From: Anaerolineae bacterium
GTDB lineage: Bacteria > Chloroflexota > Anaerolineae > B4-G1 > SLSP01
Length of the DNA stretch: 64,000 nucleotides
Direction of reading: 5' to 3'
Assembly (NCBI GenBank): GCA_016931315.1
Contig: JAFGFB010000199.1
Location: 882 to 64,881 of the forward strand
The notes below the pieces were generated by a model. The model made no database searches, was not told where the DNA came from, and saw only the letters and a list, made by a program, of their open reading frames with translations. Of this stretch, positions 5,486 through 26,653 are shown one piece after another (the stretch's first letter is position 1; the number at the start of each line of letters is the position of its first letter). A program made the translations under genes and the position numbers.

Positions 5486-5620
5486 AGAATTGCACCTTGC
5501 CACGATGTCTATAGCGGGACTTTAGTTGGGTGGTTAGAACCTCCAAGCAGGAATTTCTGGCTGAGTTCTTTTTATGCGTTGATACTGCCACTGCGCTGTA
5601 CTATTAGTTGGAGGCGGAAA

Positions 5621-6727
5621 ATGGAATCAACTTTCGATTGGGATGATTGGCGTGCTCAGTTGCAGCATCGTATTACCACGCTTGAGGCACTGCAGAAATG
5701 GATTACTGTGTCACCTGGAGAAGCCCAAGCAATTGCGGCTTGCGACGGGCGATACCGTTGGAGTGTGACGCCTTATTACGCTTCTCTTATGGATCAGAAC
5801 GACCCTAATTGCCCTGTTCGTCAACTTGCTGTGCCACGCCTGGAGGAGTTTCAGCTCTATCCCGGCGCCAGTGTGGATCCTGTGGGTGACACTGTTCATC
5901 GGAAAACAAATCGGGTGATCCACAAATACCCGGACCGGGTGATTGTTCTGGTGACGGAGCTCTGCGCCGTCTATTGCCGGCACTGCACGCGCAAATACCA
6001 CACGACGGATCTTGGTGGAACATACTTTGAGCAGGGTGAAAACGCTTCCTGGGAACCGGATTTCGCCTATATTGAGCAGCATCCCGAGGTGCGCGACGTG
6101 TTGCTCACTGGGGGTGATCCTCTCGTCTATTCTGATGAGCGTTTGGAGCCGATTCTGGCGCGTTTGCGTGCCATCCCGCACGTGGAAATTATTCGCATTG
6201 GAAGTCGTATCCCGGTGGTTCTGCCGCAGCGCATTACCGAGAATCTGGCGACGATGCTGGAGCGCTATCATCCACTGTGGTTCAATACCCATTTCAACCA
6301 TCCGAAGGAGATCACACCTGCGGCAGCGGCAGCCTGTGATCGTTTGCTGCGCCACGGGATCGTCGTGCAGAATCAGAGCGTGCTCCTCAAGGGTATCAAT
6401 GATGATTTGCCGACGCTGCGCCGGTTAATGACAGAGCTGTTGAAAATCCGCGTTCGTCCCTATTATCTCTATCACTGTGATAATGCTATCGGCATTTCCC
6501 AGTTCGTAACGACTATAGAGGCGGGACGGGCGTTGATGCGAGGGCTAAAGGGCTATCTGACTGGCTTTGGTGTGCCGGAATATGTGATTACCACACCGCT
6601 GGGCAAGATTCCTTTGTGTGAGGAGCATTTGTACCAGGATGAGGCGGGTTATTGGGTGGAGAATTACCGGGGACAAAAAATGCTTCTTGATAAAGCCTTG
6701 TTGTTTACAGAGACCGATGGTTGTTGA
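5621..6727 (+). CDS. KamA-family radical SAM aminomutase (lysine 2,3-aminomutase-like)
   Basis: Radical SAM CxxxCxxC motif in the KamA context (VTELCAVYCRHCTRK), LTGGDPL motif, and the usual C-terminal region. The internal Met at 5621 (MESTFDWDD...) is a likelier start than 5579. The exact substrate (lysine vs glutamate, or EpmB-like) is not determinable by eye. Confidence 0.8.
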   Translation: MESTFDWDDWRAQLQHRITTLEALQKWITVSPGEAQAIAACDGRYRWSVTPYYASLMDQNDPNCPVRQLAVPRLEEFQLYPGASVDPVGDTVHRKTNRVIHKYPDRVIVLVTELCAVYCRHCTRKYHTTDLGGTYFEQGENASWEPDFAYIEQHPEVRDVLLTGGDPLVYSDERLEPILARLRAIPHVEIIRIGSRIPVVLPQRITENLATMLERYHPLWFNTHFNHPKEITPAAAAACDRLLRHGIVVQNQSVLLKGINDDLPTLRRLMTELLKIRVRPYYLYHCDNAIGISQFVTTIEAGRALMRGLKGYLTGFGVPEYVITTPLGKIPLCEEHLYQDEAGYWVENYRGQKMLLDKALLFTETDGC

Positions 6728-6749: not shown

Positions 6750-7769
6750 ATGGCATCCGAATTACCGCAGAAGAAACGTTTCATCAGCCTCAGGGTCAAG
6801 TTGTTGGTGGGTTTCACGCTATTATTTATGGTTGTTTTTGCCATCGCGTTTTATTGGTTCTATACCTTCGCGACCGATGTGGCTATGCGTCAGATTGAGG
6901 AGGATATGCTCACTACGTTGGAAGGGGGTTTAAAGGGTATTGATGGCGACGCCTTCGTTGCATTGGCGGAAGAGGCTGAACTGCGCGACGATGGTTTGAG
7001 TGATGATCCTCGCTATTGGGACCATATGGCCTGGATTGAGACCATCCACGATTTGGAACCTCGCGCTAATCCTTACAGTTGGGTTCGAGGCGATCCGAAT
7101 GTACAAAATGAGGTACTCTTCATTGGTGATATTCTGCGCGTGACCCAACCTGAGAATGCCACAGTTTTCCGTGAGCCTTATATTACTCAGGGCTCAATGA
7201 TTACCGGTATGTTAACGCTGTGGGAAGACCTGGAGCCTTACCAGGATGATTGGGGGCACTGGATTTCCGCCTATGCGCCTATCCTCAACTCTGCCGGAGA
7301 ATCGGTAGGGGGTTTAGGCATTGATTTTCGTGCTGATTATGTCTACCAGGTTCAGGATTCAATCGAGGATCGCATTCTGATTTCTTTTGCCATCACCTAT
7401 CTGGCGCTGTTTGTATTGGTATATCTCATTTCTCGCACCTTAACGGGGCCTATCATTTCTTTGACGGGTGTTGCTCGTGGGGTTGCTGACGGAAATTACG
7501 ATCAGGATATTAGCAAACTCTACGGTGGCAAGACTCAGGACGAGGTAGATGCGCTGGCACAAGTCTTCGAATTGATGGTGAGTAAAGTCCGTGCTCGTGA
7601 GGAGGGGCTCAAGCGCCAGGTGCAGCAGCTACGAATCGAGATTGACGAAGTGAAGCGAACCCGGCAGGTAGAGGAGATCACCGGATCGGACTATTTTACG
7701 ACACTCAAAGAGAAAGCGCGCGTGCTCCGTCAGCAAAGCGTGACCGATGGTGGAGTTGAAGAGAGCTGA
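6750..7769 (+). CDS. Membrane sensor: TM1 - periplasmic domain (~170 aa) - TM2 - HAMP-like segment - conserved C-terminal coiled-coil module ending in an EEITGSDYF motif
   Basis: Hydrophobic helices LLVGFTLLFMVVFAIAFYWFYTF and ILISFAITYLALFVLVYLISRTL. A HAMP-like stretch TGPIISLTGVARGVADGNYDQD...LAQVFELMVSKV follows. The C-terminus QVQQLRIEIDEVKRTRQVEEITGSDYFTTLKEKARVLRQQ has a paralogous copy in the gene at 14392-15114. Confidence 0.6.
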   Translation: MASELPQKKRFISLRVKLLVGFTLLFMVVFAIAFYWFYTFATDVAMRQIEEDMLTTLEGGLKGIDGDAFVALAEEAELRDDGLSDDPRYWDHMAWIETIHDLEPRANPYSWVRGDPNVQNEVLFIGDILRVTQPENATVFREPYITQGSMITGMLTLWEDLEPYQDDWGHWISAYAPILNSAGESVGGLGIDFRADYVYQVQDSIEDRILISFAITYLALFVLVYLISRTLTGPIISLTGVARGVADGNYDQDISKLYGGKTQDEVDALAQVFELMVSKVRAREEGLKRQVQQLRIEIDEVKRTRQVEEITGSDYFTTLKEKARVLRQQSVTDGGVEES

Positions 7770-7835: not shown

Positions 7836-8612
7836 ATGTCCAAAATTATATCTATCCATTCTTTCCGTGGCGGTACGGGGAAATCTAACATCTCCGCGAA
7901 CGTCGCTTCACAGCTGGCGCAGCGTGGCAATCGCGTGGGCGTCATTGATACCGATATCCAATCCCCAGGTATCCACGTTCTCTTTGGCATGGACGAGGAG
8001 CAGATTGACAAGTCGCTCAACGATTACCTGTGGGGGCGCTGCAATATCGAGGATACTGCCTACAATGTCAGCGCGCGCATTGGCAAGGGTGAGGTCATTG
8101 TCATGGGGGCGGATATCTATTTGATTCCCTCTAGCATTCGCGCTGGGGAAATCGCCCGCGTCTTGCGCGAGGGTTATGACGTCAGTATGCTGAATGAGGG
8201 CTTCCGTGCCCTGGTGAAGCGTCTCAAACTCGACTATCTCGTTATTGATACCCATCCGGGCCTGAATGAGGAAACGTTGCTCTCTATCGCTATCTCCGAT
8301 ATCCTCTTTATCATCCTGCGCCCCGATCAGCAAGACTTCCAGGGAACCGCGGTGACGGTAGATGTTGCGCGTAAGCTGGAAGTGCCGCATCTCTTCCTGG
8401 TCATTAACAAAGCGCTTTCCTCCTATGATTTCGACGACCTGAAGAAAAACGCCGAACAAATTTACGACGCCCCTGTAGCTGCGATCCTGCCGCTATCTGA
8501 GGATGTGGCTCGTCTGCAATCCACAGATATCTTCTCGCTCCGTTTCCCGGACCATCCTGTCTCCGCCGCTATTCGGCAGATTGTCGGGTATGTTGAGGCA
8601 ATTGGGAAATGA
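7836..8612 (+). CDS. MinD/ParA-superfamily P-loop ATPase
   Basis: Deviant Walker A SIHSFRGGTGKSNISANVASQLAQRG, with Arg in place of the usual signature Lys. It is followed by a DTD motif and the general MinD/ParA fold pattern. Strong GAGGAGG RBS upstream. Confidence 0.8.
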   Translation: MSKIISIHSFRGGTGKSNISANVASQLAQRGNRVGVIDTDIQSPGIHVLFGMDEEQIDKSLNDYLWGRCNIEDTAYNVSARIGKGEVIVMGADIYLIPSSIRAGEIARVLREGYDVSMLNEGFRALVKRLKLDYLVIDTHPGLNEETLLSIAISDILFIILRPDQQDFQGTAVTVDVARKLEVPHLFLVINKALSSYDFDDLKKNAEQIYDAPVAAILPLSEDVARLQSTDIFSLRFPDHPVSAAIRQIVGYVEAIGK

Positions 8613-8824
8613 TCTGCCATGAGTGTGGAGCTCCTGCTATAGGTATTTGCAAGTTTTGTGGACGCGCCGTATGTAAGGATCATTACACCACGGTGACGCC
8701 TATCGTTCTGGCGATGTATCTGGGCCGGCAGAATACTCCAAAAGCTGTGGTTGTGAGCAATGTTCTTTGGTGTGGCAAGTGTCAGCCTCAGCCAGAGCCG
8801 ATAGAAATTCCTGAGTTTTTCTAG
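8609..8824 (+). CDS. Small zinc-ribbon protein (four Cys pairs), translationally coupled to the MinD-like ATPase
   Basis: MICHECGAPAIGICKFCGRAVCKDHY...WCGKCQ carries CxxC...CxxC...CxxC arrangements. Its ATG overlaps the ATPase stop (ATGA at 8609-8612). Confidence 0.5.
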   Translation: MICHECGAPAIGICKFCGRAVCKDHYTTVTPIVLAMYLGRQNTPKAVVVSNVLWCGKCQPQPEPIEIPEFF

Positions 8825-8834
8825 GAGGGCAGCC

Positions 8835-9227
8835 GTGGGACTCTTCAAACATTTGCAAGATGAGGTTCAGGAGCGCGAGAAGCGCGAGGGTATTACCCTG
8901 GCTGACTTGCTGGAACTCGACCCCCCGCTGCGTCGTGTGATGAATCGGGTGACTCGCTATGGGGAGATGACGGTGCCTCAAGCTGTCGAACTCCTGGAGG
9001 ATACACCGGAGAATATCACTCAGATGTTGAATACTCTCGCCGAGAAAGGCTATCTCCTGCGGGAGAAGGGTCCAGAAGGCTGGGTTTACCGCGTGCATTT
9101 GGCTCGTAAGCGTGGTACATCGTTGCCGCCGGGCGTGTGGTCTGCATTGGGGAGCCAGCTACAACCGGAGCCCTCGGATGCTCCTGACGAAGACTCTGAA
9201 GACATCGTGGAAACTGAAACGCCCTAA
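8835..9227 (+). CDS. Winged-helix (MarR/ArsR-like) DNA-binding protein with acidic C-terminal tail
   Basis: ITLADLLELDPPLRRVMNRVTRYGEMTVPQAVELLEDTPENITQMLNTLAEKGYLLRE...WVYRVHL matches helix-turn-helix plus wing topology. The C-terminus is PEPSDAPDEDSEDIVETETP. Confidence 0.5.
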   Translation: MGLFKHLQDEVQEREKREGITLADLLELDPPLRRVMNRVTRYGEMTVPQAVELLEDTPENITQMLNTLAEKGYLLREKGPEGWVYRVHLARKRGTSLPPGVWSALGSQLQPEPSDAPDEDSEDIVETETP

Positions 9228-9262: not shown

Positions 9263-10462
9263 GTGGAAAGAGCTATGCAGATTTTTCTGGCTGCTTTGAT
9301 TGCGGGAGGCATCCCTCTCATCTTCCTTTTCGTCATCTATGCACTTGATCTCTATGCCTCCCGCACTTTTCGCCTGGTGCTTGCCTGTTTTGCCTGGGGC
9401 GCCATTGGCGGCGTTGGACTTGCCTATCTTTTCAATACCCGTGTGGCGGTTCCCTTTATTCAGCGCTATCGCCTTGACCTGCTATGGCTCTATGTGGTTT
9501 TTGCGCCTATCGCTGAGGAGCTTTTCAAATCTCTCTCCCTCTTCCCTGTATCTCGTCACCGTGATTTTACCTATTTTGTTGATGGCGCGATTTATGGTTT
9601 TGCTTCCGGTATCGGTTTTTCCATTACTGAGAACTTCCTCTATATTAGCCAGGCTCCCAGATCGGCAATCTTGCTGGCGCTTATCCGTGCTTTCTCTACC
9701 TGTTTGATGCACGGCAGCGCTGCTGCCCTGGTGGGCGTGGCGGTGGGGCGTTTCCGTTTCCGCCGCGGGGTTCATCGCGGGCTGGCCGTTGTGGGCGGGT
9801 GGGGAGCCGCTATTCTGCTGCACGCTTTCTTCAATGCGATTGGGCAGGCAAATCTTGTGGGCTCTGGTCTGGTAACGCCACTATCTGTTGCCATCGGACT
9901 TCTGGGCGTGGGCTTGATTGCCTTTTTCATCAACCGGGGTCTCCAAGAAGAGGGCAAGTGGATGCTGGAGACTCTGGATCGCCAGGTTGAGGTGAGCGGC
10001 GCCGAGGCCCGCGCTGCCCAGTCTTTTGCCACGCTGGAAGAGCTTTTGGCGCCGTTGGCAGTTACCTTTCCTGAGAAAGCGGAGCAGATCGAGGCTCTGG
10101 TGTTGCATCAGGCGAAATTCGGCATCAAACGGAAGATTTTCCAGCAGCTAGAAGCGCCGGAAGCCAGGACGCGTTTGCAGCAAGAGCTGGATGAGATGCA
10201 GGTGGAGATGGAAACGTTGCGCCGGCAGATTGGCAGCTATGCCATGATTTATGTGCGCAGCGTTTTTCCTGAGGGGCGTGTAAATGTCTGGTCGAACCTG
10301 GAACTTGTAGTGCGCCAGGACCAACCTGCCGATGTGGCGCGTTGGACTACACTGCTCACGGCAAAGGATGCTGCTGGTGCTGCGCCGTCAGCGCGCAGTA
10401 TCTTTGGGCGCCTGGGCGAAATTCAGCAAGAGAAACACCAGGGGAATGACGCCGGCCAATGA
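9263..10462 (+). CDS. PrsW-family intramembrane metalloprotease with ~170-aa cytoplasmic coiled-coil extension
   Basis: Polytopic N-terminal half carrying PrsW signature motifs (APIAEELFKS = EExxK; GFSITENFLY; MHGSAAALVG = HxxxxA). The C-terminal half is rich in coiled-coil-like heptads (QQELDEMQVEMETLRRQIG). Confidence 0.65.
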   Translation: MERAMQIFLAALIAGGIPLIFLFVIYALDLYASRTFRLVLACFAWGAIGGVGLAYLFNTRVAVPFIQRYRLDLLWLYVVFAPIAEELFKSLSLFPVSRHRDFTYFVDGAIYGFASGIGFSITENFLYISQAPRSAILLALIRAFSTCLMHGSAAALVGVAVGRFRFRRGVHRGLAVVGGWGAAILLHAFFNAIGQANLVGSGLVTPLSVAIGLLGVGLIAFFINRGLQEEGKWMLETLDRQVEVSGAEARAAQSFATLEELLAPLAVTFPEKAEQIEALVLHQAKFGIKRKIFQQLEAPEARTRLQQELDEMQVEMETLRRQIGSYAMIYVRSVFPEGRVNVWSNLELVVRQDQPADVARWTTLLTAKDAAGAAPSARSIFGRLGEIQQEKHQGNDAGQ

Positions 10463-13400
10463 ACCGGTGGCGGGTTGTGCTGCCGCCACTCTACCTGCCG
10501 TGCTGCAAGATTACCTTTCTCCTTCTTTGTGGGAGCAGCTGCAAGCAGAACCCACTCGCCGAGGGTTGTTGCTTGATGCTCTCACTGCCTTGCATTCCTT
10601 TGTTTACTTGCTTTCCACGTACCTGCCCCATCCGCTTGTTGAAGCGCTTAAGCGCGACCCAGCGCCTGGCCAGATTGGCGGCGAGTGTTTGGAGGGCAGT
10701 CTGCTCTTTGCCGATGTGAGCGGCTTTACGGCGCTTTCGGAGCGCCTGGCAGCTCAGGGATCCATCGGCGTTGAAACCCTTACCGGGCACATCAACACTT
10801 ACTTTGACGCCATGGTCCAGGTCCTGGCGCGTTCTTCCGGCGCGTTGCTCAAGTTCGCGGGAGATGCCCTGCTCGCCTATTTTCCCTTGCAGGCCAATGG
10901 ACGACACGCGCAATGGGCCAGTCGCGCGGCGCAGCGCATGATGCGCGTCATGGGCGCTTTTGCCGCTTTGGAAACCCCCGCCGGACCGGTCGCGCTTCGC
11001 ATGAAGATAGGGCTGGCTACCGGTCCCTTTGTGGCAGTAAAAGCCGGTGTGCCGGAGCGGATGGAGTACGTCGTTTTTGGTGAGACGGTCTCCCGTACCC
11101 TGGCGCTGGAGGGCACGTTGAGCGCTGGACAAATTGGTGTAGATGCAGCGACTGCGGCGCTCCTGGCGCCAGCGCAAATTCAACCTCATACCGGCGATTT
11201 CTTCCTCTTTGCCTTGGATAACGCCGAAGAACACGCCGATTTTGAAATTCAGGTTGAAGGTCAGCGGCGCGGTCGCAGCAGCGGCTTGTTGATGGCTTCA
11301 CATGAGGAACTTCACGCACAGATTACCCTCGCGCTGCGCCAGATTCAGGCCTTGAGTGCTTTCTTGTCGGCACCGCTTGTGGAATTGTTGTTGGTGCACG
11401 CCCATCAGCGACAGCTGCCGGCGGAAAATCGTCCCGCCGCAATTCTCTTCTTCAATCTGACCGGGATCGAGCCGTTGTGGGATTCCGCGAATCCACACAC
11501 ATTGCCTCGCGCCACACAGGTTTTGAATGCTTGTTTCAACGTAGTGCAGACAAGTGTCGCCCGCTACGGAGGCATAATTAGCCGTATTGACCCTTATAAG
11601 GTGGGGTCCAAAATCCTTGCCATATTTGGTGCGCCCGTAGCGCATGAGGATGATCCCCTGCGTGCGGTGCGGGCTGCCCTCGATGCGCGGGCCGGGCTCG
11701 CCGGGTTGCTTGCGCGTTGGGAGCGCGATTCTACCCTGGCCGCAGACCCGGCCTGCGGCCAGGACGCAGGGATTGCGCTGCAGGCGGGCATCGCTTACGG
11801 ACCCACATTTGCGGGGCCTGTTGGTGCGGCAATTCGCCGTGAATATACGCTCATGGGAGACGACGTCAATCTTGCTGCGCGGCTAATGGGCGCGGCGCAA
11901 CCGGGGCAGATTCTTGTAGCTCCCGCCGTAGCTGTCTCCATTCAAGCCGCCGTAAAACTGACGGCGCTAGCTCCGTTGCGGCTCAAGGGAAAGCGCGATC
12001 CGGTCCCCGTTTTTCAGGTTGAAAGTCTGGGGCATGATCCCTTGTCACGCCGGTTGGCGCTTCGAGGGCCACTTTTGGGACGGGAAGCTGAGTTGGGACT
12101 GGCACGTGCAGCCTTGCAAAAAGCGCTCTCTGGGAAGGGGAGCCTGTTGAGTGTGGTCGGCGAACCAGGGATTGGAAAGAGCCATTTCGCCGATACGTTG
12201 GCGGCTGAGGCGCGGGCCCAGGGTGCCAGTGTACACCTTAGCACATGTGCCGCTTATGCACTTGCCACTCCTTATGCCCCGTGGATTGCTCTCATCCGGA
12301 CGCTGGCTCATCTTGCACCCGAACTGGCGGGTGAGGCTGCTGCGCGGCAGCTTTTGGAATGGCTCGCGCGTGAGGGCTGCCTTGCCGAAGATATCTCCGC
12401 GCCTCTATTGCAGTTGTTCGGTTTGCCTGTGCTTTCGCTGGGAAACATACCCACCTTCGGAGAATCTGTGAATTCGCCCGTACCAGTTCGTCCCGGACTC
12501 TTTCAGCGTCTTGGCGCGCAGGTTGCGCCATCCCCTGCGGCTCCTGTCAGGGCTTCGCTCTGGCAGCTGGCTCGTGAGCGACAGCATGTGCCTGGCGGCA
12601 GCGATACATGGCGTCAACTGGAGCGCCGTATCGCCGACCGTGTGCAGACCCGGCTTTTCAATGCCATGGAGCATTTGTGGACTGCGTTAGCACAGAAGTC
12701 GCCCCGCGTGTTGATTTTTGAGGATGTTCACTGGCTTGATGCGCCTTCGCGCAATTTGCTGACGCATTTAGTCGGTGCGCTCTCTGATTATCCGGTGTTA
12801 TTTTTGATCACCTGCCGCCCGGCAGAGAGGGCGGGGAACACTTTTTCCGCACAGGTGATTTCTTTAGGGCCTCTGACGCCGAAAGCAGTTGAGGCTTTGG
12901 TGTCTCATCTACTGGGTGCAGATAGTCTTTCGGGTGAACTACTGGCGCTAATGCCCACGTTGATGGCGAAGACTGGCGGAAATCCGTTGTTTATCGAGGA
13001 ACTCTGTGCCTGGTTTCGGCGCAACGGGGTCCAGGATCTTGAAGCCGGATTGCGGCACTCGTTGACTCTCCAGGAACTGGTGCTAAGCCGTTTGGATACG
13101 CTCTCACATGTGGAGGGGATGGCGGTGCGCGCCGCATCGGTCGTGGGTAACGATTTTCAGGTGTCTGAACTGGCTGCGCTGTTGCACGAGACTGTGCCCA
13201 CTCACTTGTCGCCGGCCCTTGAGGGGTTGGAGAACGCCCGTTTCACTTTTGCTATGCCGCAGGTGAATGTTGAGCATGGCGCCGTGGCACATTCCTTTTG
13301 CCAAACCCTGGTTCGCGAGATGCTCTATGACTCGCAACCTCTTGTCCGGCGCCGTCAACTTCATGCCCGGTTGGCGGAGTATCTTCGCACCAATCATGCA

Positions 13401-14363
13401 GCCGACCTCGCGGCTGTGGCGGAAGAGCTCGCTTATCACTATCTTCAGGCCAGCGCCTGGCTTGAAGCGAGCCGTTTCGCCCTTCTGGCAGGGACCAAGG
13501 CGCAATCCCGCGCTGCCTACGAGGCGGCTCTGGAGCATTACACGGCTGCGGAGCAGGCATTGACGCATCTTTCGGGGGCGAAAAATGCGACGCCGGAGGC
13601 ACGTGATTTATGGGGGCGTGTGCGTGTGGGGCAGGGTGATGTGGCATTCCTTCAAGGTCACTTTGAAGCCGCTGGGCAAGCTTATGCTGCGGCGCACCCC
13701 GATTTGCAGGATGCTCCGCAACTACTGGCGCGCGCCGTGTTGGTGCGACCTCTCTTGAAGCCGGGTGTATCCATGCTGGAGATGACGGAGGATGCATGGA
13801 ATGTGCTTGAATCAGCGGGAACGGCGTTACCTGCCATCGCTGCTGTGCTCGCGTGGTTTCACTGGCGTGAGGGCGACCTTCAGGTGGCGTGCAGGTGGGC
13901 AGAACGCGGCAGCCCAAATGCGTTGATGGCGTTCATTGGTGGCGATTTGCAGAAGGCATGGGGCAGCTACCAGGCTGAGAAGGAACTGGCTGGTGCGGCG
14001 TTGGTCGCACTGCAGCTGGCTGAATCTCAGTCTGCACAGGGTGCCGCGAAGTTGTGGTTGGCGCGCGCCACAGAAGATTGGACGCGCGAGGACGACGCTT
14101 GGGGAATGGTGCTGGTGCAATGCAAACAGGCACACCTCCTCCGGCTACAAGGTGATCTTTCGGCTGCTGCTCGGATTGTCGAAGAGGCGCGCTCGTCGTT
14201 GCAGCTGGTATCTGCGCAGGTCTTCGATTCAGAAACGCCTACGGTTGTTCCGGATGCGGGGGATTTTGAAGTCTGCATTCTAGGGCAACGACGCTATGAG
14301 GATATCTTTCATGCTCTGTATCTCTTTAATCTATTGACACCTTTCTCGCCGGAAGTACAATGA
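10446..14363 (+). CDS. Tandem class III adenylate/guanylate cyclase domains + STAND/AAA ATPase + TPR-like helical C-terminus
   Basis: Cyclase domain 1 (LLFADVSGFTALSERL...KFAGDALLAYF). Cyclase domain 2 (AILFFNLTGIEPLW...KILAIFGAPVAHEDDPLRAVRAALD...REYTLMGDDVNLAARLM). P-loop GEPGIGKSHFA and Walker B-like VLIFEDVHWLD. Long alpha-helical C-terminus. The start at 10446 (MTPANEPV) overlaps the PrsW stop by 17 nt; the ORF formally opens at 10332. Confidence 0.8.
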   Translation: MTPANEPVAGCAAATLPAVLQDYLSPSLWEQLQAEPTRRGLLLDALTALHSFVYLLSTYLPHPLVEALKRDPAPGQIGGECLEGSLLFADVSGFTALSERLAAQGSIGVETLTGHINTYFDAMVQVLARSSGALLKFAGDALLAYFPLQANGRHAQWASRAAQRMMRVMGAFAALETPAGPVALRMKIGLATGPFVAVKAGVPERMEYVVFGETVSRTLALEGTLSAGQIGVDAATAALLAPAQIQPHTGDFFLFALDNAEEHADFEIQVEGQRRGRSSGLLMASHEELHAQITLALRQIQALSAFLSAPLVELLLVHAHQRQLPAENRPAAILFFNLTGIEPLWDSANPHTLPRATQVLNACFNVVQTSVARYGGIISRIDPYKVGSKILAIFGAPVAHEDDPLRAVRAALDARAGLAGLLARWERDSTLAADPACGQDAGIALQAGIAYGPTFAGPVGAAIRREYTLMGDDVNLAARLMGAAQPGQILVAPAVAVSIQAAVKLTALAPLRLKGKRDPVPVFQVESLGHDPLSRRLALRGPLLGREAELGLARAALQKALSGKGSLLSVVGEPGIGKSHFADTLAAEARAQGASVHLSTCAAYALATPYAPWIALIRTLAHLAPELAGEAAARQLLEWLAREGCLAEDISAPLLQLFGLPVLSLGNIPTFGESVNSPVPVRPGLFQRLGAQVAPSPAAPVRASLWQLARERQHVPGGSDTWRQLERRIADRVQTRLFNAMEHLWTALAQKSPRVLIFEDVHWLDAPSRNLLTHLVGALSDYPVLFLITCRPAERAGNTFSAQVISLGPLTPKAVEALVSHLLGADSLSGELLALMPTLMAKTGGNPLFIEELCAWFRRNGVQDLEAGLRHSLTLQELVLSRLDTLSHVEGMAVRAASVVGNDFQVSELAALLHETVPTHLSPALEGLENARFTFAMPQVNVEHGAVAHSFCQTLVREMLYDSQPLVRRRQLHARLAEYLRTNHAADLAAVAEELAYHYLQASAWLEASRFALLAGTKAQSRAAYEAALEHYTAAEQALTHLSGAKNATPEARDLWGRVRVGQGDVAFLQGHFEAAGQAYAAAHPDLQDAPQLLARAVLVRPLLKPGVSMLEMTEDAWNVLESAGTALPAIAAVLAWFHWREGDLQVACRWAERGSPNALMAFIGGDLQKAWGSYQAEKELAGAALVALQLAESQSAQGAAKLWLARATEDWTREDDAWGMVLVQCKQAHLLRLQGDLSAAARIVEEARSSLQLVSAQVFDSETPTVVPDAGDFEVCILGQRRYEDIFHALYLFNLLTPFSPEVQ

Positions 14364-14391
14364 CGTGAAGCTGTTACACATAAGGGGTGAA

Positions 14392-15114
14392 ATGATGCTT
14401 GATTCCACGGTACTCAAAAATGTTCCACTGTTTGCCCATCTTTCCGATACCGAGCTGGCGCAATTGCGGGCTGTCTTGACAGAACGGCATTTGAATACGG
14501 GTGACATCCTGTTCAAAATGGGTGAGGCAGGGGAGGAATTGTATATCGTGCGCCAGGGTCGCGTTGCGATCTATGTACCCAACCCTGAAACACCAGGGAA
14601 AGAGCAGCCGATTCGGATTTTCGAGCCTGGAGAGGCGTTAGGCGAGATGGCGTTGATTGACCGGCAACCACGCTCGCTCAGTGCTCGAGCTTTGGAGCCT
14701 GCCGTACTGCTTGCACTCACCGGTGAGGAGTTCCACCGGTTATTAGCTGCGCACCCCCAGCTGGCGCTGAGTGTGATGAGTGGATTGAGTGACCGCATTC
14801 GCTACACGACCGAATTCCTGAGCGAGGTGCGCGGGTGGGTGCAGCGTGTGGCGGCGGGCAAGTATGACCGTGCTGGTAGTGCAAATCAGGATTATGCTGA
14901 TCCTTCGATTGCTGCCCTGGCTGCCGAGTTTACCCAGATGGCAGTCCAGGTGCAGCAGCGCGAGGAAGCACTGCGCCAAGAGGTGCTGCAATTGCGTATC
15001 GAGATTGACGATTCCAAGCGCAAACGCCACGTGGAAGAAATCACCGGTTCGGATTATTTCCAATCTCTCCAGCAACGGGCACGTCGTCTCCGCGACGAAA
15101 AGGGTGAGGAGTAA
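14392..15114 (+). CDS. Cyclic-nucleotide-binding (CAP/Crp-type cNMP) domain protein with the same C-terminal HAMP-like + EEITGSDYF module as the 6750 sensor
   Basis: cNMP-binding signature VPLFAHLSDTELAQLRAVLTERHLNTGDILFKMGEAGEELYIVRQGRVAIY...FEPGEALGEMALIDRQPRSLSARA. The C-terminal 100 aa align residue-for-residue with the C-terminus of the 6750-7769 product. Start 1 nt after the upstream cyclase stop; the internal ATG at 14392 follows AAGGGGTGA. Confidence 0.75.
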   Translation: MMLDSTVLKNVPLFAHLSDTELAQLRAVLTERHLNTGDILFKMGEAGEELYIVRQGRVAIYVPNPETPGKEQPIRIFEPGEALGEMALIDRQPRSLSARALEPAVLLALTGEEFHRLLAAHPQLALSVMSGLSDRIRYTTEFLSEVRGWVQRVAAGKYDRAGSANQDYADPSIAALAAEFTQMAVQVQQREEALRQEVLQLRIEIDDSKRKRHVEEITGSDYFQSLQQRARRLRDEKGEE

Positions 15115-15178
15115 CCGCGTCCTGTCTCGTGTCTTATAGTGCAGTTTGCGCAATCGGTTTATTGGGGAGGCGGTAGCC

Positions 15179-18100
15179 ATGCAATGTTCAGCATGCGGTA
15201 ATCTCAATCCAGGCACAGCCCGTTTTTGTATGTATTGCGGGGCAGCCCTTGTCAAGGGTAAGGTCTGTGCGCGTTGCTTCACGTTATTGCCCGTAGAAGC
15301 GCGTTATTGTTTTCATTGTGGCGCCTTTCAGGGTGAATCCGAGGGTCTCAGCCCCACACCGGTGACGCCAGCGGCAAGCACCACGTCGAGAGTTTCCCCC
15401 GTGGTCTCCATCCCCCGCGAACCCATCATGTCTGAAGCTGAGCCGGTAGCCTCTTTGGACGTTGCTTTGCCGCCTGAGCGTTCATTGGAAGCGTTGCGCA
15501 ATGACTTGCGGCGTTATTTGCCGGACTCGCTCTATGAACCGCTGGAGCGCCGCCCCAAGGATCGGGACATCCTCGCGGTGCGGGATCATCTTAGCGCTCT
15601 GTTGAGCACGGTGAAGACCTACCTCCCAGGTCCTGTGGTGTTAGCGCCGCAACCGGCCGGTGAGCCAGCTGGGGGCATGTTGCAAGGCGTGTTTCTCTTT
15701 GGTGATGTTTCGGGCTTCACGCCGCTCTCCGAACGTTTGAAGCCTCTGGGACATGAGGGCGCTGAGCGGATTACCGGCATCATCAATGCCTTGTTCTCAC
15801 AATTGGTGCGGGTGCTTTTTGCTCATGGTGGGACTTTGTTGAAGTTTGGTGGTGACGCGCTGTTGGGGCTGTTCCCCGCAGGTAACAAGGCTGAGCTTGC
15901 GGCAGGGGTGTTGCGCGCAACGCAGGCTGCCTTGGAGATGCAGGCGGTCATGAAGCGCGATGAGTTTGCGGCTATTGATGCCCTTGGTGAGACTCAAGCT
16001 CTGAAAATCAAGTGCGGCATCTCTGCCGGGCCTTATTTTGCCGCCCATATCGGGACCTCTCCGCAACCCGACTCAGGCGATTTGGGTTCGATGGCGTACG
16101 TGACTACCGGACACACGGTGAATCTGGCTGAAGAGTGTGAGGGGCATGCCAATCCGGGTGAAGTGGTTTTGCCGACAGCGGTTTGTACTCTGGTCGAAGG
16201 ACAACTAGAGACTGCACCGGTGACCAAGTCTCCGGACCCGGCTTTTTTTCGGGTGTCGAAGGTGTTGGTGGCTCTTCCGGAGGTTCCGGAGCAACTGTTT
16301 GCCGCTGAGCCGCCTGAGGGGTCTCCTTTGGCGCAAATCACTTACCTCGCCGACCGCTTGAACCGGCTGACTCCCTATCTATCCGTCGAGCTTCTCAGCC
16401 GTATTGCCCTTAACCCGCGTGATGCGCGCATTGCACCCGACCACCGTCCCGTTACTGTGATGTTTGTGAATTATGTGGGCATCAGCGACCTGATCGAGGA
16501 CCTGGGGGAAAGCCATCCTCAGATCATCGTGGAACAGCTCAATGCTTACTTCATGTGGATGGCGCAGGTCGTGGAGAAATATGAGGGGGCGTTGGCGCGT
16601 ATGGATCAATACGCCGTGGGTGACCGGTTGGTGATCTTTTTCGGCGCGCCGCGCGCGCACGAGGATGACCCTGTGCGCGCGGTCTATACGGCGCTGGAGA
16701 TGCAAGCCCTTACTCGGGAGCGTTTTTCGGCTCTCCAAACCCCCTTTGGTATCTATCGCTTCCGCCAGCGTATTGGTATCAATACTGGCACGCTCTTCGC
16801 GGGAAATGTGGGCGCGTCTGACCTGCGTCAGGAATATACGCTCATGGGTGATGATATCAATATGGCGGCGCGGCTGATGTCGTATGCAGAGTGGGGTAAA
16901 ATCTACATTAGCAACAAAACTGAAGAACGGGTGCGCCCCTTCTTTGAGTTGAGCGACCGTTTCGATTTGAAGGTGAAGGGCAAGGCGATTCTCATCCCAA
17001 CCTATAAAGTGCTGGGACCGCGTGACGAGGTCGGACCTACACGGGGCCTGGAAAGTGGTGAATCCCCGCTTATCGGGCGTCAGGAGGCATTGGCACAGTT
17101 GCAGCAGGTCGGGCAGCGTTTCCTCGGCGGGCGCGGGCAGATTGTGGCATTGTTGGGAAATAGCGGCTTGGGCAAATCCCGGTTGTTACGGGAATTGCAG
17201 CGGTGGTATGCCGGGCAGCCTGAGGCGGCAGAGTTGCGCTGGATCGAAGCGCGCCCTTTTTCCTTTAGCGAGCACATTAACTACTGGCTGGCGCGCGAAA
17301 TGCTACGCACTATGCTGGGATTGGCTCCGGATGCTGATGAGAACGAAATACTCTTCCAACTCTGGGAGCAGACCGAAAGCCTGCTGGGCAAAGAAAAAGC
17401 CCGCGAAATTGCGCCTTTTTTGGCCTATCTGATGAATTTGCCGTTGGAGGGTGTTTGGGCGCAGGAGGTCAAAGACCTTAGCCCGCAGGTGCGCCAGAAG
17501 GAGATTCTCTGGGCGGCGCGGGAATTTTTTAGCGCCGCTGCCCGGCGCGGACCGCTGTTGATTGCTCTGGATGACCTGCATTGGGCGGATGAAGCATCGC
17601 TGGCGTTGGTGGAAACTTTGTTGGCGGTGACCGATCAGGCGCCGTTGCTGTTTTGCCTGGCCTCCCGCCCTACACGCGATAAGCGCAGCTGGCAATTACG
17701 CAATGTCGCCGCTGGCAATTTTCCCCATCGCTATACTGAGGTGCAACTCCAACCCCTGCTTCGTGAGCAGAGTCAGAGCTTGCTTCAGGCGTTATTGCCT
17801 GGCGCCCAATTCTCTGAGGCGACGTTGGTAGATATTTTCGATAAATCTGCCGGAAACCCATTCTATCTGGAAGAAGTGGTACGCTCCCTTATTGAAAGCG
17901 GCGCTGTGGCACCGGAGGCGGTGCCGCTATCAGGTGTTGAGGGGGCTGAGAGCAAGGCGCAGAGCTTAAGACGATGGCATGTGACCTCCCGTATTGAGCA
18001 GATTACGGTTCCCACGAGCCTCCATGCTGCGATTGTCTCGCGTATTGACCGGTTGACGGAGGATGCCCGACAGGGGTTGCAGATGGCTGCGGTCCTCGGG

Positions 18101-19489
18101 CGACAGTTCCGCGTTGACTTATTGCGTGGTGTCTCACAGGCTAATGAAGAAGTGGATTTGTGGTTGGCGCAGTTGGAGCGTGGAGGACTGCTGCGCTCAA
18201 CTGAGACGGGGGACATGCCCACTTACGCTTTCCCAGATACTCTGGTCCAGGAGGTAGCCTACGACAGCATTTTGGTACAGAATCGCAGTCAGTGGCATCG
18301 TCGAGTGGGTGAGGCGTTAGAGGCATTAAGCGAGGATGGTTCGGTACAACTACAGCAGTTGCTGGCATATCATTTCAGTCGCAGTGATGATGGCGCAAAA
18401 GCAGTCAAGTATTTGCAACTGGCAGCAAAACAGGCTCGCGAAGACTACGCCAATGAGACAGCAATCGCCTATTATCAGCAGCTTCTGGAATGGCAGCAAA
18501 AAGCCCATGATTTAGCGGGGCAGGCACAGGCGCGCTATGCGATGGGGGTTATGGCTTATGAAATCGGCGATTATGACCGAGCGACCCCATGGTTGGAGGA
18601 GGCGACCGCGCTCTACCGGCAACTGGAGGATGAAGCCAATGAGGCGTGGAGTGCTATGTATCAGGGAATGGTGGCTCTGAAGCGGGGTTTCTATGCGGAA
18701 GCGACGGTGTATCACCAGCGTGCGCTGGAGCTGGCTCGAAAGCGTGCTGACGGATTCCAGGAAGGTATTCACCTGACTAACCTGGCGCGGGTGACGCTGC
18801 GTTTGGGCGATTATCCGCAAGCCTTGGAACAATTCCATGCCTCTTTGGCTTTGAAGCAGCAGAACGCCGATGTGACTGGACAGGCCTTTGCCTGGTTCTA
18901 TTTGGGATTGACCCATCTCTTCTGTGGTCAGTATGAAGCTGCGGGTGAGGCTTTCGAGGCCTCGTTGGCATTATGGCAGCAAGTGCCCAAGAATGAACGC
19001 GGTGTCTCCTATTGTCAGTATGGGTTGGGGCTGTTGGCATTGCAGCAAGAACGTTATGCTGAGGCTGTCGGCTATTTCCGGCGCGCGCATGCCACCAGTG
19101 TCAAGTTAGTGTTGAAGGCAGAGATTATCGAGAATCTCTCCTTTCTGGGACGCGCAGAATTGGGGTTGGGGCACTGTGAGGCAGCTCTGGCAGTCTCAAA
19201 AGAGGCGATAGACTTGTTGCGTACTCAGCGTGACGTCGAGGCTGTTCAGAGCATTTATCTGAACCATTTTACCATTCTGAGCGCCTGCGGCGCCCCTGAT
19301 GCCACAATGGCATTGATGAAGGCCCATGAGATTGTGATGGAGCAGGCGCAACATCTTGAGACTGAATTTGCACGGGCGCGATTTTTAGAGCAGATTCCTG
19401 CAAACCGGGAGATTCTGTTGGAGGCGCAGCACCAGGGGGATTTACCACCGCATACTCCACTTTCCCCTGTGTCTGACGCGAGCGCTTGA
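15179..19489 (+). CDS. Double zinc-ribbon + tandem class III cyclase domains + STAND/AAA ATPase + TPR repeats
   Basis: N-terminus CSACGNLNPGTARFCMYCGA...CARCFTLLPVEARYCFHCGA (two zinc ribbons). Cyclase domains (VFLFGDVSGFTPLSERL...KFGGDALLGLF; VTVMFVNYVGISDL...RLVIFFGAPRAHEDDPVRAV...EYTLMGDDINMAARLM). P-loop GNSGLGKSRLL and LLIALDDLHWADEASL. Clear TPR-like repeats near the C-terminus. GGGGAGG RBS before the ATG at 15179. Confidence 0.85.
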   Translation: MQCSACGNLNPGTARFCMYCGAALVKGKVCARCFTLLPVEARYCFHCGAFQGESEGLSPTPVTPAASTTSRVSPVVSIPREPIMSEAEPVASLDVALPPERSLEALRNDLRRYLPDSLYEPLERRPKDRDILAVRDHLSALLSTVKTYLPGPVVLAPQPAGEPAGGMLQGVFLFGDVSGFTPLSERLKPLGHEGAERITGIINALFSQLVRVLFAHGGTLLKFGGDALLGLFPAGNKAELAAGVLRATQAALEMQAVMKRDEFAAIDALGETQALKIKCGISAGPYFAAHIGTSPQPDSGDLGSMAYVTTGHTVNLAEECEGHANPGEVVLPTAVCTLVEGQLETAPVTKSPDPAFFRVSKVLVALPEVPEQLFAAEPPEGSPLAQITYLADRLNRLTPYLSVELLSRIALNPRDARIAPDHRPVTVMFVNYVGISDLIEDLGESHPQIIVEQLNAYFMWMAQVVEKYEGALARMDQYAVGDRLVIFFGAPRAHEDDPVRAVYTALEMQALTRERFSALQTPFGIYRFRQRIGINTGTLFAGNVGASDLRQEYTLMGDDINMAARLMSYAEWGKIYISNKTEERVRPFFELSDRFDLKVKGKAILIPTYKVLGPRDEVGPTRGLESGESPLIGRQEALAQLQQVGQRFLGGRGQIVALLGNSGLGKSRLLRELQRWYAGQPEAAELRWIEARPFSFSEHINYWLAREMLRTMLGLAPDADENEILFQLWEQTESLLGKEKAREIAPFLAYLMNLPLEGVWAQEVKDLSPQVRQKEILWAAREFFSAAARRGPLLIALDDLHWADEASLALVETLLAVTDQAPLLFCLASRPTRDKRSWQLRNVAAGNFPHRYTEVQLQPLLREQSQSLLQALLPGAQFSEATLVDIFDKSAGNPFYLEEVVRSLIESGAVAPEAVPLSGVEGAESKAQSLRRWHVTSRIEQITVPTSLHAAIVSRIDRLTEDARQGLQMAAVLGRQFRVDLLRGVSQANEEVDLWLAQLERGGLLRSTETGDMPTYAFPDTLVQEVAYDSILVQNRSQWHRRVGEALEALSEDGSVQLQQLLAYHFSRSDDGAKAVKYLQLAAKQAREDYANETAIAYYQQLLEWQQKAHDLAGQAQARYAMGVMAYEIGDYDRATPWLEEATALYRQLEDEANEAWSAMYQGMVALKRGFYAEATVYHQRALELARKRADGFQEGIHLTNLARVTLRLGDYPQALEQFHASLALKQQNADVTGQAFAWFYLGLTHLFCGQYEAAGEAFEASLALWQQVPKNERGVSYCQYGLGLLALQQERYAEAVGYFRRAHATSVKLVLKAEIIENLSFLGRAELGLGHCEAALAVSKEAIDLLRTQRDVEAVQSIYLNHFTILSACGAPDATMALMKAHEIVMEQAQHLETEFARARFLEQIPANREILLEAQHQGDLPPHTPLSPVSDASA

Positions 19490-20041: not shown

Positions 20042-24346
<4,305 letters not shown>

Positions 24347-24458: not shown

Positions 24459-25082
24459 ATGAGGGATGAGGCTGTGACCGAACAAGAATGGATCATGGCG
24501 GCCATGCACGGAGAAGAGTCTGCGATCAGCTGGTTGGTGGAAGCCTACCAGCCGATGGTGTTTGGTCTGTGTTATCGTATGTTGGGCAGCCCCACTGATG
24601 CTGAGGATGCTGCGCAGGATGCCCTGGTGAAGGCAGTGATGAGCCTGCAATCCTTCGATTTGGAGCGTCCTTTCAAACCCTGGGTGTTGCGAATCGCCTC
24701 AAACCTCTGTACCGATCGTTTGCGCCGACGACGCCCGGAAGTTTCTCTGGATGGTATGGGAGATGATGGCGCCTGGGAGTGGCAGGCTGGCTCTGATCCC
24801 AGTCCGGAGCAACAGCTGGAAGCGCGTGAGCGGCAAAAGGCGATACAGGTTCTCTTGGAGACACTATCGCCTGTGGATCGTCTGGTGGTGACCTTGTATT
24901 ACTGGCAGGACCTTTCCTATGAAGAGATCGCCGAAGCGACGCATTTGAGTGTCTCGGCGGTGAAATCGCGGCTGTTCCGCGCGCGGCGTGGCATGGCGGA
25001 ATGTTGGGCACAAAACCAGGATGATGAGGGTAGTTATTGTAATAGTGGAATGCGGGAGGCGCATTATGTGGGACATGCATAG
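24459..25082 (+). CDS. ECF-type RNA polymerase sigma-70 factor
   Basis: Region 2 (LVEAYQPMVFGLCYRMLGSPTDAEDAAQDALVKAVMSL...FKPWVLRIASNLCTDRLRR) and region 4 (LSYEEIAEATHLSVSAVKSRLFRARRGM) are both present. About 200 aa, typical ECF length. Confidence 0.85.
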   Translation: MRDEAVTEQEWIMAAMHGEESAISWLVEAYQPMVFGLCYRMLGSPTDAEDAAQDALVKAVMSLQSFDLERPFKPWVLRIASNLCTDRLRRRRPEVSLDGMGDDGAWEWQAGSDPSPEQQLEARERQKAIQVLLETLSPVDRLVVTLYYWQDLSYEEIAEATHLSVSAVKSRLFRARRGMAECWAQNQDDEGSYCNSGMREAHYVGHA

Positions 25083-25644: not shown

Positions 25645-26616
25645 GTGATGGAAGGTATCGATCTGCAAACGCTTTCCCGAGTGGTGATTATCACCGGCGC
25701 CAGCACTGGCATCGGTGAGGCAACCGCGCGGCGCTTTGCGCGCGAGGGTTGGTGTGTGGTGCTCGCTGCGCGGTCTGAGGCGAAGCTAACGCGGTTGCAG
25801 GTTGCCATCGAGGCTCAAGGCGGGCGGGCTTTGGCTGTGCGGGCAGATGTCACACAGCAAGAGGATGTGGCCCGGATCGTTGAGCGGGCGCTGGCTGCCT
25901 TTGGGCGCATTGATGTGTTGATCAACAACGCCGGTGTAGGTATTTCTGGCACGCTAGACTCACTGGGTCTGGATGTGTTTGAGTATGCACTCAAGTTGAA
26001 TGTCCTTGCACCCATCGCCATGTTGCAAGCGGTGTTTCCAACGATGAAGCGCCAGGGTAGCGGGGTCATTGTCAATGTGTCCTCGATGATTGAGGCTGTT
26101 GCGGTGCCCTACATGGCAGGTTATGGCGCGAGTAAGGCGGCGCTTGGATACCTTTCGGATGCGGCGGCAATCGAGCTGGATGAATACAACATTGCCGTGA
26201 TCCGGGTGTTGCCGGGGATGACAGAAACGAACTTTAACGCGAATTTGCTCAAGACCGGTGAGGCGACCTCGCTAGAGACGTTGTTTGAGCGCGCGGGTTT
26301 GCTCAAGTCGGTATCGCCAGAGCGGGTTGCCGATGCTATTTGGGAAGCCGTACTTTCACGCCGCCGCCTCACTTACGTGACGGTGGAGGATGGCTTGTTG
26401 GTGCAAACTGCCAGTGTCAATCCGGGTGTCACGAACCGTTTTTTGCGTTTTGCTGTTCGCCGCTATGCGCCGCGTAAGGGAACGGCGAGTGGCGTTTCGG
26501 TTAAGGCGGATATCGTTCGCCTTGAGCGGGTAGCCGGATTGCTGCTCGCTGCTGCGGCACTTGGAACTGGTGTGTGGTTAGCAAGGAGAGGCCGAAGCGA
26601 AAGTGCTTCTGCTTAG
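25645..26616 (+). CDS. SDR-family short-chain dehydrogenase/reductase with C-terminal membrane anchor
   Basis: TGASTGIGEATARRFAREG (TGxxxGxG cofactor motif), NNAG, and the catalytic YMAGYGASK (YxxxK). The C-terminal hydrophobic stretch is VAGLLLAAAALGTGVWLA. Confidence 0.85.
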   Translation: MMEGIDLQTLSRVVIITGASTGIGEATARRFAREGWCVVLAARSEAKLTRLQVAIEAQGGRALAVRADVTQQEDVARIVERALAAFGRIDVLINNAGVGISGTLDSLGLDVFEYALKLNVLAPIAMLQAVFPTMKRQGSGVIVNVSSMIEAVAVPYMAGYGASKAALGYLSDAAAIELDEYNIAVIRVLPGMTETNFNANLLKTGEATSLETLFERAGLLKSVSPERVADAIWEAVLSRRRLTYVTVEDGLLVQTASVNPGVTNRFLRFAVRRYAPRKGTASGVSVKADIVRLERVAGLLLAAAALGTGVWLARRGRSESASA

Positions 26617-26653
26617 ATTTGTGTCTCAAAAAGCATTAGAAGAGGAGGCAATC

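Follow-up and report, generated by a model that had tools for sequence, protein, structure and literature searches.

A conserved helical C-terminal module of bacterial sensor proteins and its gene linkage to a MinD-like ATPase family

We studied a stretch of 64,000 nucleotides (the window) from an Anaerolineae bacterium (contig JAFGFB010000199.1, positions 882 to 64,881, assembly GCA_016931315.1) in which two signalling proteins end with the same kind of sequence, here called the tail. A first-pass annotation had described colinear, about 60% identical ends in the two open reading frames (ORFs) and had placed the shared region of the first between 7440 and 7769, an interval that covered most of a HAMP domain plus the tail. 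The features of the two genes, together with an ATPase gene whose product is the proposed partner of the tail, are the following:
6750-7769, plus strand: sensor protein 1, of the transmembrane (TM)-HAMP type, 339 aa (ORF and translation)
7425-7592, plus strand: HAMP domain (residues 226-281) of protein 1, with 29.8 bits in Pfam (cutoff 25, E 7e-7)
7596-7736, plus strand: tail core of protein 1, REEGLKRQVQQLRIEIDEVKRTRQVEEITGSDYFTTLKEKARVLRQQ, modelled as helix-turn(GS)-helix with a predicted local distance difference test (pLDDT) score of 88-95
7836-8612, plus strand: MinD/ParA-like P-loop ATPase, 258 aa, Walker A HSFRGGTGKSN (Pfam AAA_31/ParA/CbiA)
14392-15114, plus strand: sensor protein 2, of the cyclic nucleotide (cNMP)-binding type, 240 aa; a GTG at 14365 is another possible start
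14815-14958, plus strand: HAMP-like linker of protein 2, residues ~142-189, aligned with the HAMP domain of protein 1 in BLASTP
14959-15099, plus strand: tail core of protein 2, REEALRQEVLQLRIEIDDSKRKRHVEEITGSDYFQSLQQRARRLRDE, modelled (pLDDT 91-97) as a helix to residue 218, a break at G219-S220 and a helix at 221-239

Protein 1 comprised a TM segment, an extracytoplasmic region of ~170 aa without Pfam match, a second TM segment, the HAMP domain and the tail (~58 residues after HAMP); two hydrophobic segments bracket the ~170-aa region. Orthologues of protein 1 with matching synteny were present in loci L002-L004, L006, L008 and others. Protein 2 consisted of a cNMP-binding domain (cNMP_binding, PF00027; residues 32-121, Pfam E 2.6e-22, 79 bits against a cutoff of 27.5), the HAMP-like linker and the tail (~120 residues past the cNMP domain). 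No match to Pfam HAMP (PF00672) was found in protein 2, and its linker matched the NCBIfam SiaA HAMP region weakly (E 0.006).

BLASTP alignment of the two proteins gave one local match, restricted to the C-termini, with 45 of 87 residues identical (52%, E 5e-21). Along the 47-codon core (7596-7736 and 14959-15099) identity was 64% in protein, in line with the first-pass figure, and 63% in DNA. For the 23-codon motif 'LRIEID...EEITGSDYF' the DNA of both genes was 74% identical, close to the 75% first reported. The same codon was used at only 13 of the 30 identical core residues, which speaks for old paralogy under protein-level selection rather than for recent duplication or gene conversion. 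When 'EEITGSDYF' was back-translated and searched with up to two mismatches, exactly two sites appeared in the window, 7671-7696 and 15034-15059; the same DNA pattern had 0 matches in 100 shuffles. The tail common to both proteins is neither a chance likeness nor a generic coiled coil.

A single 73-aa tail used as query in a word-indexed homologue search retrieved one relative only. An exhaustive HMMER search with a three-sequence profile collected 2,077 clusters, formed at 50% identity, with E<=1e-3, of which 1,010 reached E<=1e-10. Domain and position statistics of the family were drawn from the best 150-151 proteins of this profile search. In the best 151, which were 74 to 770 aa long, the tail stood at the very C-terminus (a median of 5 residues followed the match). 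The domains co-occurring in 150 of them were HAMP (97), dCache_1 (19), receiver or REC (9), Cache_3-Cache_2 (8) and GAF (5+4), and more rarely sCache (4), cNMP-binding (3), HisKA (3), WD40 (2) and Tll0287-like (2). The tail was thus joined to at least eight kinds of input domain, CHASE2-like included; the HisKA matches in full-length relatives lay on the N-terminal side of the REC domain. None of the best 150 proteins had the tail fused to the ATPase or to the winged-helix (wHTH) module described below. Source names followed the input domains only, e.g., 'HAMP domain-containing protein' or 'cache domain-containing protein'. Signal-output modules of this kind make up a large family without a name, spread across many bacterial phyla, to which the C-termini of proteins 1 and 2 belong.

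Short tail-only ORFs (66-115 aa) were also observed on long contigs (L081:6001-6201, L082:6001-6348 and L083:6001-6291), surrounded by many short unannotated genes and one split cNMP+tail pair. Because the gene calls around them are fragmented, these ORFs are probably frameshift fragments of error-prone or long-read assemblies, not genuine stand-alone tails.

An alignment of 288 unique tails yielded the consensus G.LA.VF..MA..V.ARE..LK.QV.ELRIEIDE.KK.RQV.EIT[E/G][S/T]DYF..L..KA..LR. The highest conservation was found at R17 (100%), L53 (99%), L21, D33 and V41 (98% each), E18 (97%), L28, F50 and R61 (96% each), I30 and I44 (95% each) and I32 (93%), and the near-invariant polar residues were R17, E18, D33, K36, E43, T45, D48 and R61. 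The terminal motif was retained in homologues and was the most conserved part of this family of more than 2,000 clusters. The tail was essentially gapless, with an insertion between columns 9 and 62 in only 2 of 302 sequences. Columns 1-14 correspond to HAMP helix AS2, and the 3-4 hydrophobic spacing (L3, F7, M10, V14, L21, V25, L28, I32) ran unbroken from AS2 into the tail, a fixed register that signalling by helix rotation or piston movement would require. All REC- and cNMP-type members had a conserved HAMP-like linker of 45-50 aa between input and tail; the linker consensus of the REC type scored 16.3 bits (E 0.013) against HAMP (PF00672). In a GAF protein of locus L066 the tail was attached directly with no linker between, which sets the minimal core at the last ~50 aa, normally placed after HAMP.

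AlphaFold models of both proteins concurred within the module. For residues 231-339 of protein 1 (pLDDT 83.7 overall, 88-95 in the tail) the model presented a helix, a connector, a long helix running through '...RQVEEIT', a two-residue G-S break and a last helix starting at 'DYF'; its HAMP part (helix 2-16, connector, second helix) had the Af1503 HAMP as best fold matches. In protein 2 the module (pLDDT 85-97) was modelled as helix 122-154, connector, helix 171-218, break 219-220 and helix 221-239; the cNMP domain, for which the alignment had no depth, was modelled poorly. The turn fell at 'G/E-S/T' in both, and the tail appeared as an antiparallel two-helix hairpin continuous with HAMP AS2. 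The first-pass reading of a HAMP-like part, a coiled coil and a motif agrees with the linkers of the REC and cNMP types and with the helix-connector-long helix-turn-helix order of both models. Its suggestion of a short docking peptide does not, as the tail is predicted instead to be a folded helical hairpin of ~50-60 aa.

The module had first been said to lie outside any described output domain, and searches with it bore this out: the region past HAMP had no significant match in Pfam-A, NCBIfam or PADLOC, and PDB sequences, searched with the single tail and with its profile, returned coiled-coil noise only. Full-text literature, queried with motif strings, RGGTGKS, domain combinations and plausible descriptions, contained nothing relevant. 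A reading as a defence system was discarded, since the PADLOC matches were to the generic cNMP domain and P-loop only. The weak recurrent Pfam matches of the tail were all to coiled-coil families and all sub-threshold.

Among known elements, the tail resembles the dimerization and histidine phosphotransfer (DHp, HisKA) hairpin of HAMP histidine kinases (EnvZ, VicK/CovS-like), minus the histidine and the catalytic domain. Histidine was not conserved in the tail: in the 288 unique tails it ranked outside the three most frequent residues at every helix-1 position, save for a 5-6% minority at two variable columns; no HATPase_c follows the tail, which ends the protein, and 0 of 51 isolated tails matched Pfam HisKA at E<=1. 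Membership in HisKA is ruled out by the missing H-box, HATPase_c and Pfam match, and with no conserved histidine and no HATPase_c phosphotransfer by the tail is impossible.

The hairpin tip of methyl-accepting chemotaxis proteins (MCPs), which docks CheA/CheW, offers a second likeness: diverse inputs, HAMP, a conserved antiparallel hairpin and many receptors acting on one ATP-using partner. In Foldseek comparisons the top TM-scores (0.66-0.69) were those of HAMP-Tsr fusions. The tail has, however, ~50 aa as compared with ~300 in the MCP signalling domain and lacks a methylation region; MCPsignal (PF00015) matched neither window protein and was absent from the families listed for the 150 relatives, and no CheA/CheW genes were found in the tail neighbourhood.

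HalX (PF08663) is a short all-helical, possibly coiled-coil domain of uncharacterised function on receiver domains of haloarchaeal response regulators (PMC5847659, PMC7824242); in QarA it forms an internal linker, REC-HalX-GAF (PMC12642392). Nine of the 51 isolated tails matched HalX at E<=1, the best at 14.6 bits against a gathering score of 23.2. The weak matches kept their register on the second half of the tail (tail 37-64 on HalX 24-51 of 68; E 0.05-0.3), but they span only ~27 residues and miss the LRIEID helix. HalX occurs in Halobacteria only and may stand inside a protein, whereas the tail is bacterial, C-terminal and usually placed after HAMP. A kinship with HalX is unproven from sequence, its one argument being the consistent register of weak matches, and even if real it would leave the function of the tail unexplained. 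The tail is thus outside HisKA, MCPsignal and, on present evidence, HalX; by analogy, its mode of action would come closest to that of a DHp stalk or of an MCP hairpin tip, i.e., of a conserved HAMP-coupled hairpin for docking.

Gene context was analysed by scanning one genome per GTDB species, which confirmed 450 sites and returned 78 loci, the majority in Chloroflexota and others in Cyanobacteria, Acidobacteriota, Planctomycetota, Actinomycetota, Deinococcota, Armatimonadota, Rokubacteria, Binatia and Proteobacteria. The query being a seven-sequence subset, the sample is biased to 'LRIEIDE' variants and to the 80 best tblastn hits, and Chloroflexota are strongly represented. Once the locus of P0001 was added, the tail-centred set comprised 79 loci with 96 tail genes. 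A MinD-like ATPase gene (E<1e-60 to that of the window) lay within 350 bp on the same strand of 32 of the 96 tail genes (27 downstream, 5 upstream) and within 6 kb of 20 others; a cyclase-STAND gene adjoined 14, and 30 had neither neighbour. Adjacency to the ATPase was observed for 19 of 37 TM-HAMP, 8 of 19 soluble REC and 2 of 11 cNMP proteins, and is thus independent of the input domain; 8 of the 11 cNMP-type tail genes adjoin a cyclase-STAND gene instead. Unbiased clustering of neighbours over the 79 loci found the ATPase in 44, the winged-helix protein in 36, cyclase-STAND in 22, the zinc-ribbon protein in 19, the arginine aminomutase in 12 and PrsW in 10. Several tail genes can accompany one or two ATPases (four in L009, three in L019), and independent gene calls with precomputed Pfam matches agreed on the tail-ATPase linkage.

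A metagenome locus (L080:4445-12246) held genes for STAS, a SpoIIE phosphatase and a split cNMP-binding + tail pair, with the ATPase also present, as well as a PycTM-domain protein, a Crp-like regulator and a cyclase-STAND-TPR gene, forming a dense cyclic-nucleotide signalling neighbourhood.

The ATPase itself matched Pfam AAA_31 (E 4e-19), ParA (6e-18) and CbiA (4.5e-16), and stayed below the NCBIfam cutoffs of minD_arch (91.9 against 201.75 bits) and minD_bact (44.3 against 212.9; TIGR01968 / TIGR01969) as well as that of AAA_KGGVGR (79.5 against 90 bits). Its nearest PDB sequences were archaeal MinD 1hyq (1.3e-16) and 1g3q, and FleN 5j1j also matched. The P-loop reads 'HS[F/Y]RGGTGKSN', with RGGTGKS in 46 of 52 homologues; an arginine, R11, invariant across the ATPase alignment (A7), replaces the signature lysine of MinD/ParA. 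Clustered at 90% identity, the family has no fewer than 7,999 clusters, nearly all of 251 aa; it is 52-69% identical across phyla and bears in its source the label 'MinD/ParA family protein', nothing more specific.

The linkage was also tested in reverse, with the ATPase family as query on metagenome contigs, which gave 80 ATPase-centred loci. Where at least 1.5 kb was available on both sides, a tail gene was no more than 700 bp away in 21 of 31 loci and no more than 6 kb away in another 3. With flanks of at least 2.5 kb (n=26), a tail gene lay within 2.5 kb in 19 loci, the wHTH module in 9 and both in 8; 11 loci had tail and ATPase without detectable wHTH. In three of the remaining reverse loci the tail gene was 2.8-4 kb off. 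By a rough estimate these frequencies exceed expectation by orders of magnitude, because a genome holds a handful of such ATPase genes among thousands. Whichever of the two genes is taken as the starting point, the tail gene is found linked to a single, specific ATPase family.

A divergent MinD-like paralogue with the P-loop 'SFRRGTGK[ST]' was seen beside the RGGTGKS ATPase in 7 of the 80 loci (e.g., L134:6837-7625 and L113:2786-3550). After the tail genes of L061, L069 and L078 this divergent paralogue comes next instead of the RGGTGKS type.

The other genes of the cluster in the window were:
5579-6727, plus strand: arginine 2,3-aminomutase-like radical SAM enzyme (NCBIfam TIGR04468, 610 bits against a cutoff of 600)
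8609-8824, plus strand: 71-aa Cys-rich zinc-ribbon-like protein (weak Pfam Zn-finger matches)
8835-9227, plus strand: 130-aa winged-helix protein, MarR/IclR-like, with two conserved, family-specific motifs, GLFxRLQxE at the N-terminus and RKRGRxxPxxIWxxL at the C-terminus
9263-10462, plus strand: PrsW-family intramembrane protease (Pfam PrsW-protease E 1.6e-31)
10332-14363, plus strand: adenylate/guanylate cyclase + STAND (AAA_16) protein 1 (Pfam Guanylate_cyc, AAA_16)
15146-19489, plus strand: double-zinc-ribbon + cyclase + STAND (AAA_16) + TPR protein 2 (Pfam)

The wHTH protein was the second commonest neighbour (36 of 79 tail-centred and 39 of 80 ATPase-centred loci). In Acidobacteriota, Binatia, Solirubrobacteraceae and some Anaerolineales its module lay inside a polytopic membrane protein of ~970 aa similar to amino-acid permeases (Trp_Tyr_perm/Aa_trans + MarR_2), whose gene sits between the RGGTGKS ATPase gene and a REC-HAMP-tail gene. 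These permease-like wHTH genes are:
L016, 690-3608, minus strand
L018, 6686-9616, minus strand
L039, 10222-13116, minus strand
L064, 6495-9446, plus strand
L165, 7764-10667, plus strand

Its embedding in a membrane protein suggests that the winged helix serves, in part at least, in protein interactions within the system. A likeness noticed by eye between the wHTH N-terminus, 'REGITLADLLEL', and the tail, 'VEEITGSDYFTTL', was ruled out by hhalign (probability 0.6%). The aminomutase gene lay directly upstream of the tail gene in the window and in 11 other loci and was recurrent in Anaerolineae; in L132 (4864-5952) it directly preceded the ATPase without an intervening tail gene. Its presence and that of the permease-like partner hint at a link to amino-acid metabolism. 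Zinc-ribbon homologues were found in 19-21 of 79 tail-centred and 13 of 80 ATPase-centred loci. Cyclase-STAND protein 1 adjoins cNMP-type tail genes in related loci. As listed, its ORF shares 131 nt with the end of the PrsW gene (10332-10462); the true start is probably an internal Met near 10446 ('MTPANEP...'), which leaves a short, operon-like overlap.

PrsW was present in 10-11 of 79 tail-centred and 7-8 of 80 ATPase-centred loci, mostly in close relatives of the window. PrsW is known as a site-1 protease for an anti-sigma factor. A gene for an extracytoplasmic function (ECF)-type sigma-70 factor (24459-25082, plus strand) lay ~15 kb from the cluster, and ECF-sigma-like genes with a possible anti-sigma were seen within 3.5 kb of the ATPase in 9 of the 80 metagenome loci, some with PrsW (for example L113:3641-4736 and L160:495-1064). 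Right after the second cyclase-STAND gene the window carries rpoC (RNA polymerase beta', 1,434 aa; 20042-24346, plus strand) with no rpoB immediately upstream, and further on, past the ECF sigma gene and an SDR gene, a 414-aa bactofilin-domain protein (E 9e-12; 26603-27847, plus strand) is encoded.

The best explanation of these results, which we hold with moderate confidence, is that the tail is a new signal-output module that docks to, or controls, the MinD-like ATPase; that the two bind directly, which way control runs and what follows downstream are here inferred. The first tail helix would continue the second HAMP helix in fixed register and turn at 'EIT-[E/G]-[S/T]-D-[Y/F]-F' into the second helix, and a dimeric sensor would thereby present, by inferred geometry, a DHp-like four-helix stalk without phospho-accepting histidine or kinase domain. 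Since the sensors have no other output domain, this stalk would be their output. Its conformation would be set by the input, i.e., in protein 1 a periplasmic signal relayed by TM-HAMP, in protein 2 cAMP/cGMP and in REC-type relatives phosphorylation, and would control docking to the two-fold-symmetric, ATP-dependent dimer of the RGGTGKS ATPase (7836-8612). Several sensors would thus converge on one nucleotide switch acting with the winged-helix module (8835-9227), and the two cyclase-STAND proteins of the window may make the nucleotide that protein 2 senses.

ParA/MinD ATPases form ATP-sandwich dimers and have specific partners encoded alongside (PMC10241942). The known pairs (MinD-MinE, ParA-ParB, FleN-FleQ, ParC-ParP and PpfA-TlpT) share with the present case a small deviant-Walker-A ATPase beside a specific partner gene. 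ParC and PpfA act on signalling receptors, and FleN modulates a transcription factor. The window ATPase differs from them by its Arg in place of the signature Lys and by scores below the NCBIfam MinD cutoffs. Several points weigh against docking to the ATPase: it is deduced from gene context; 30 of the 96 tail genes had no ATPase nearby, those of all three cyanobacterial loci among them; and known ParA/MinD partners stimulate the ATPase through an N-terminal peptide that is basic and disordered (PMC10241942), whereas the tail is C-terminal and confidently modelled as helical. The first-pass proposal that different inputs are coupled to a common partner therefore holds as to the inputs, of at least eight kinds, and as to the MinD-like ATPase being the most consistent neighbour in both directions, with the docking itself drawn from gene context.

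The tail could instead be a handle by which the ATPase clusters, positions or partitions the sensors, the wHTH protein serving as adaptor, so that the tail itself carries no signal; ParC/ParP and PpfA/TlpT, which serve chemoreceptor arrays, would be the models. ParA/MinD ATPases as a rule adjoin the genes of their cargo or partner, and two of them position chemoreceptor clusters (PMC10241942); the tail-ATPase linkage and the presence of multiple sensors per ATPase at one locus fit this equally, and the terminal motifs of the wHTH protein, the basic RKRGR included, could stimulate the ATPase. We regard it nonetheless as fairly unlikely: the sensors would be left without any output, the tail being the sole domain after HAMP; the gapless, register-fixed join of AS2 and tail, needed for signalling, would be superfluous in a passive tag; and soluble cNMP (240 aa) and REC proteins would be unusual cargos.

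Less probable still, and on balance quite doubtful, is that the tail docks to the winged-helix module or, in the cNMP type, to the cyclase-STAND NTPases, with the ATPase as a further component of the pathway. The wHTH module is recurrent, as counted above; in Acidobacteriota and Binatia the tail gene directly abuts the wHTH membrane-protein gene, with the ATPase on the far side, and 8 of 11 cNMP-type tail genes abut cyclase-STAND. Near the ATPase, however, the tail was twice as frequent as wHTH (19 against 9 of 26 loci), the 11 loci mentioned had no wHTH, and hhalign finds tail and wHTH family unrelated. The cyclase adjacency, nearly confined to the cNMP type, is more simply explained by second-messenger logic, i.e., cAMP production and sensing.

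It is very unlikely that the tail has no dedicated partner and acts as a self-association element (an end-cap or a mixed sensor bundle) or as a HalX-like nucleic-acid-binding helix-loop-helix. Its sequence is coiled-coil-like, as are all the families of its sub-threshold Pfam matches, and HalX, one of these, has been speculated to be HTH/HLH-like (PMC5847659). Yet generic coiled coils accept indels and surface change, whereas the tail is gapless and its polar residues hardly vary; it lacks the basic region that DNA-binding HLH or bZIP proteins typically have, many of its carriers are membrane-anchored, HalX matches never attained the gathering score, and the two-way linkage to the ATPase gene would be left unexplained. 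That the tail serves the neighbouring PrsW protease as a site of recognition or cleavage is highly implausible, even with a PrsW gene in the cluster of the window and its close relatives, as the tail is cytoplasmic and also found on soluble proteins, and the low frequency of PrsW rules it out as a general partner. Of the three partners that the first-pass annotation had offered, the MinD-like ATPase is thus favoured; PrsW is a lineage-restricted neighbour (10 of 79 loci), and adjacency to the cyclase-STAND proteins is mainly a trait of the cNMP type.

If docking to the ATPase is the right reading, the whole might amount to an unrecognised multi-phylum pathway made of diverse sensors, a kinase-less DHp-like hairpin, an Arg-variant MinD-type ATPase and a winged-helix module, either free or built into an amino-acid-permease-like membrane protein; the hairpin would control the ATPase directly, and the ATPase would act on the winged-helix module. 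This wider proposal we advance only tentatively. Conservons (CvnA-D) are likewise operons with a membrane sensor, a P-loop NTPase switch, small accessory proteins and no classical response regulator (PMC13343842, PMC13621833). Their components are a Ras-like GTPase, a Roadblock GTPase-activating protein and a kinase-like sensor, whereas here we found a MinD-type ATPase, sensors without kinase and no Roadblock gene; the two systems would be analogous only, with no common components.

The tail is a new output-module family within modular signal-transduction proteins and suggests a sensor-to-response route undescribed so far. It would supply an output to thousands of bacterial sensors named only 'HAMP domain-containing', 'cache domain-containing' or 'response regulator', in which none is visible, and would bring function and partners to a highly conserved, abundant and unnamed subfamily of MinD/ParA ATPases. 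If the tail controls the ATPase, signal input to a ParA/MinD-type switch would be testable with small soluble proteins (the 240-aa cNMP-tail protein and the 258-aa ATPase), and STAND-cyclase cAMP signalling would be tied to a MinD-type switch. The family merits a Pfam/InterPro model, which would improve signalling censuses in Chloroflexota, Cyanobacteria, Acidobacteriota, Planctomycetota and other phyla. If true, the proposed pathway would represent a wiring principle distinct from two-component phosphotransfer, chemotaxis arrays and conservon G-protein systems.

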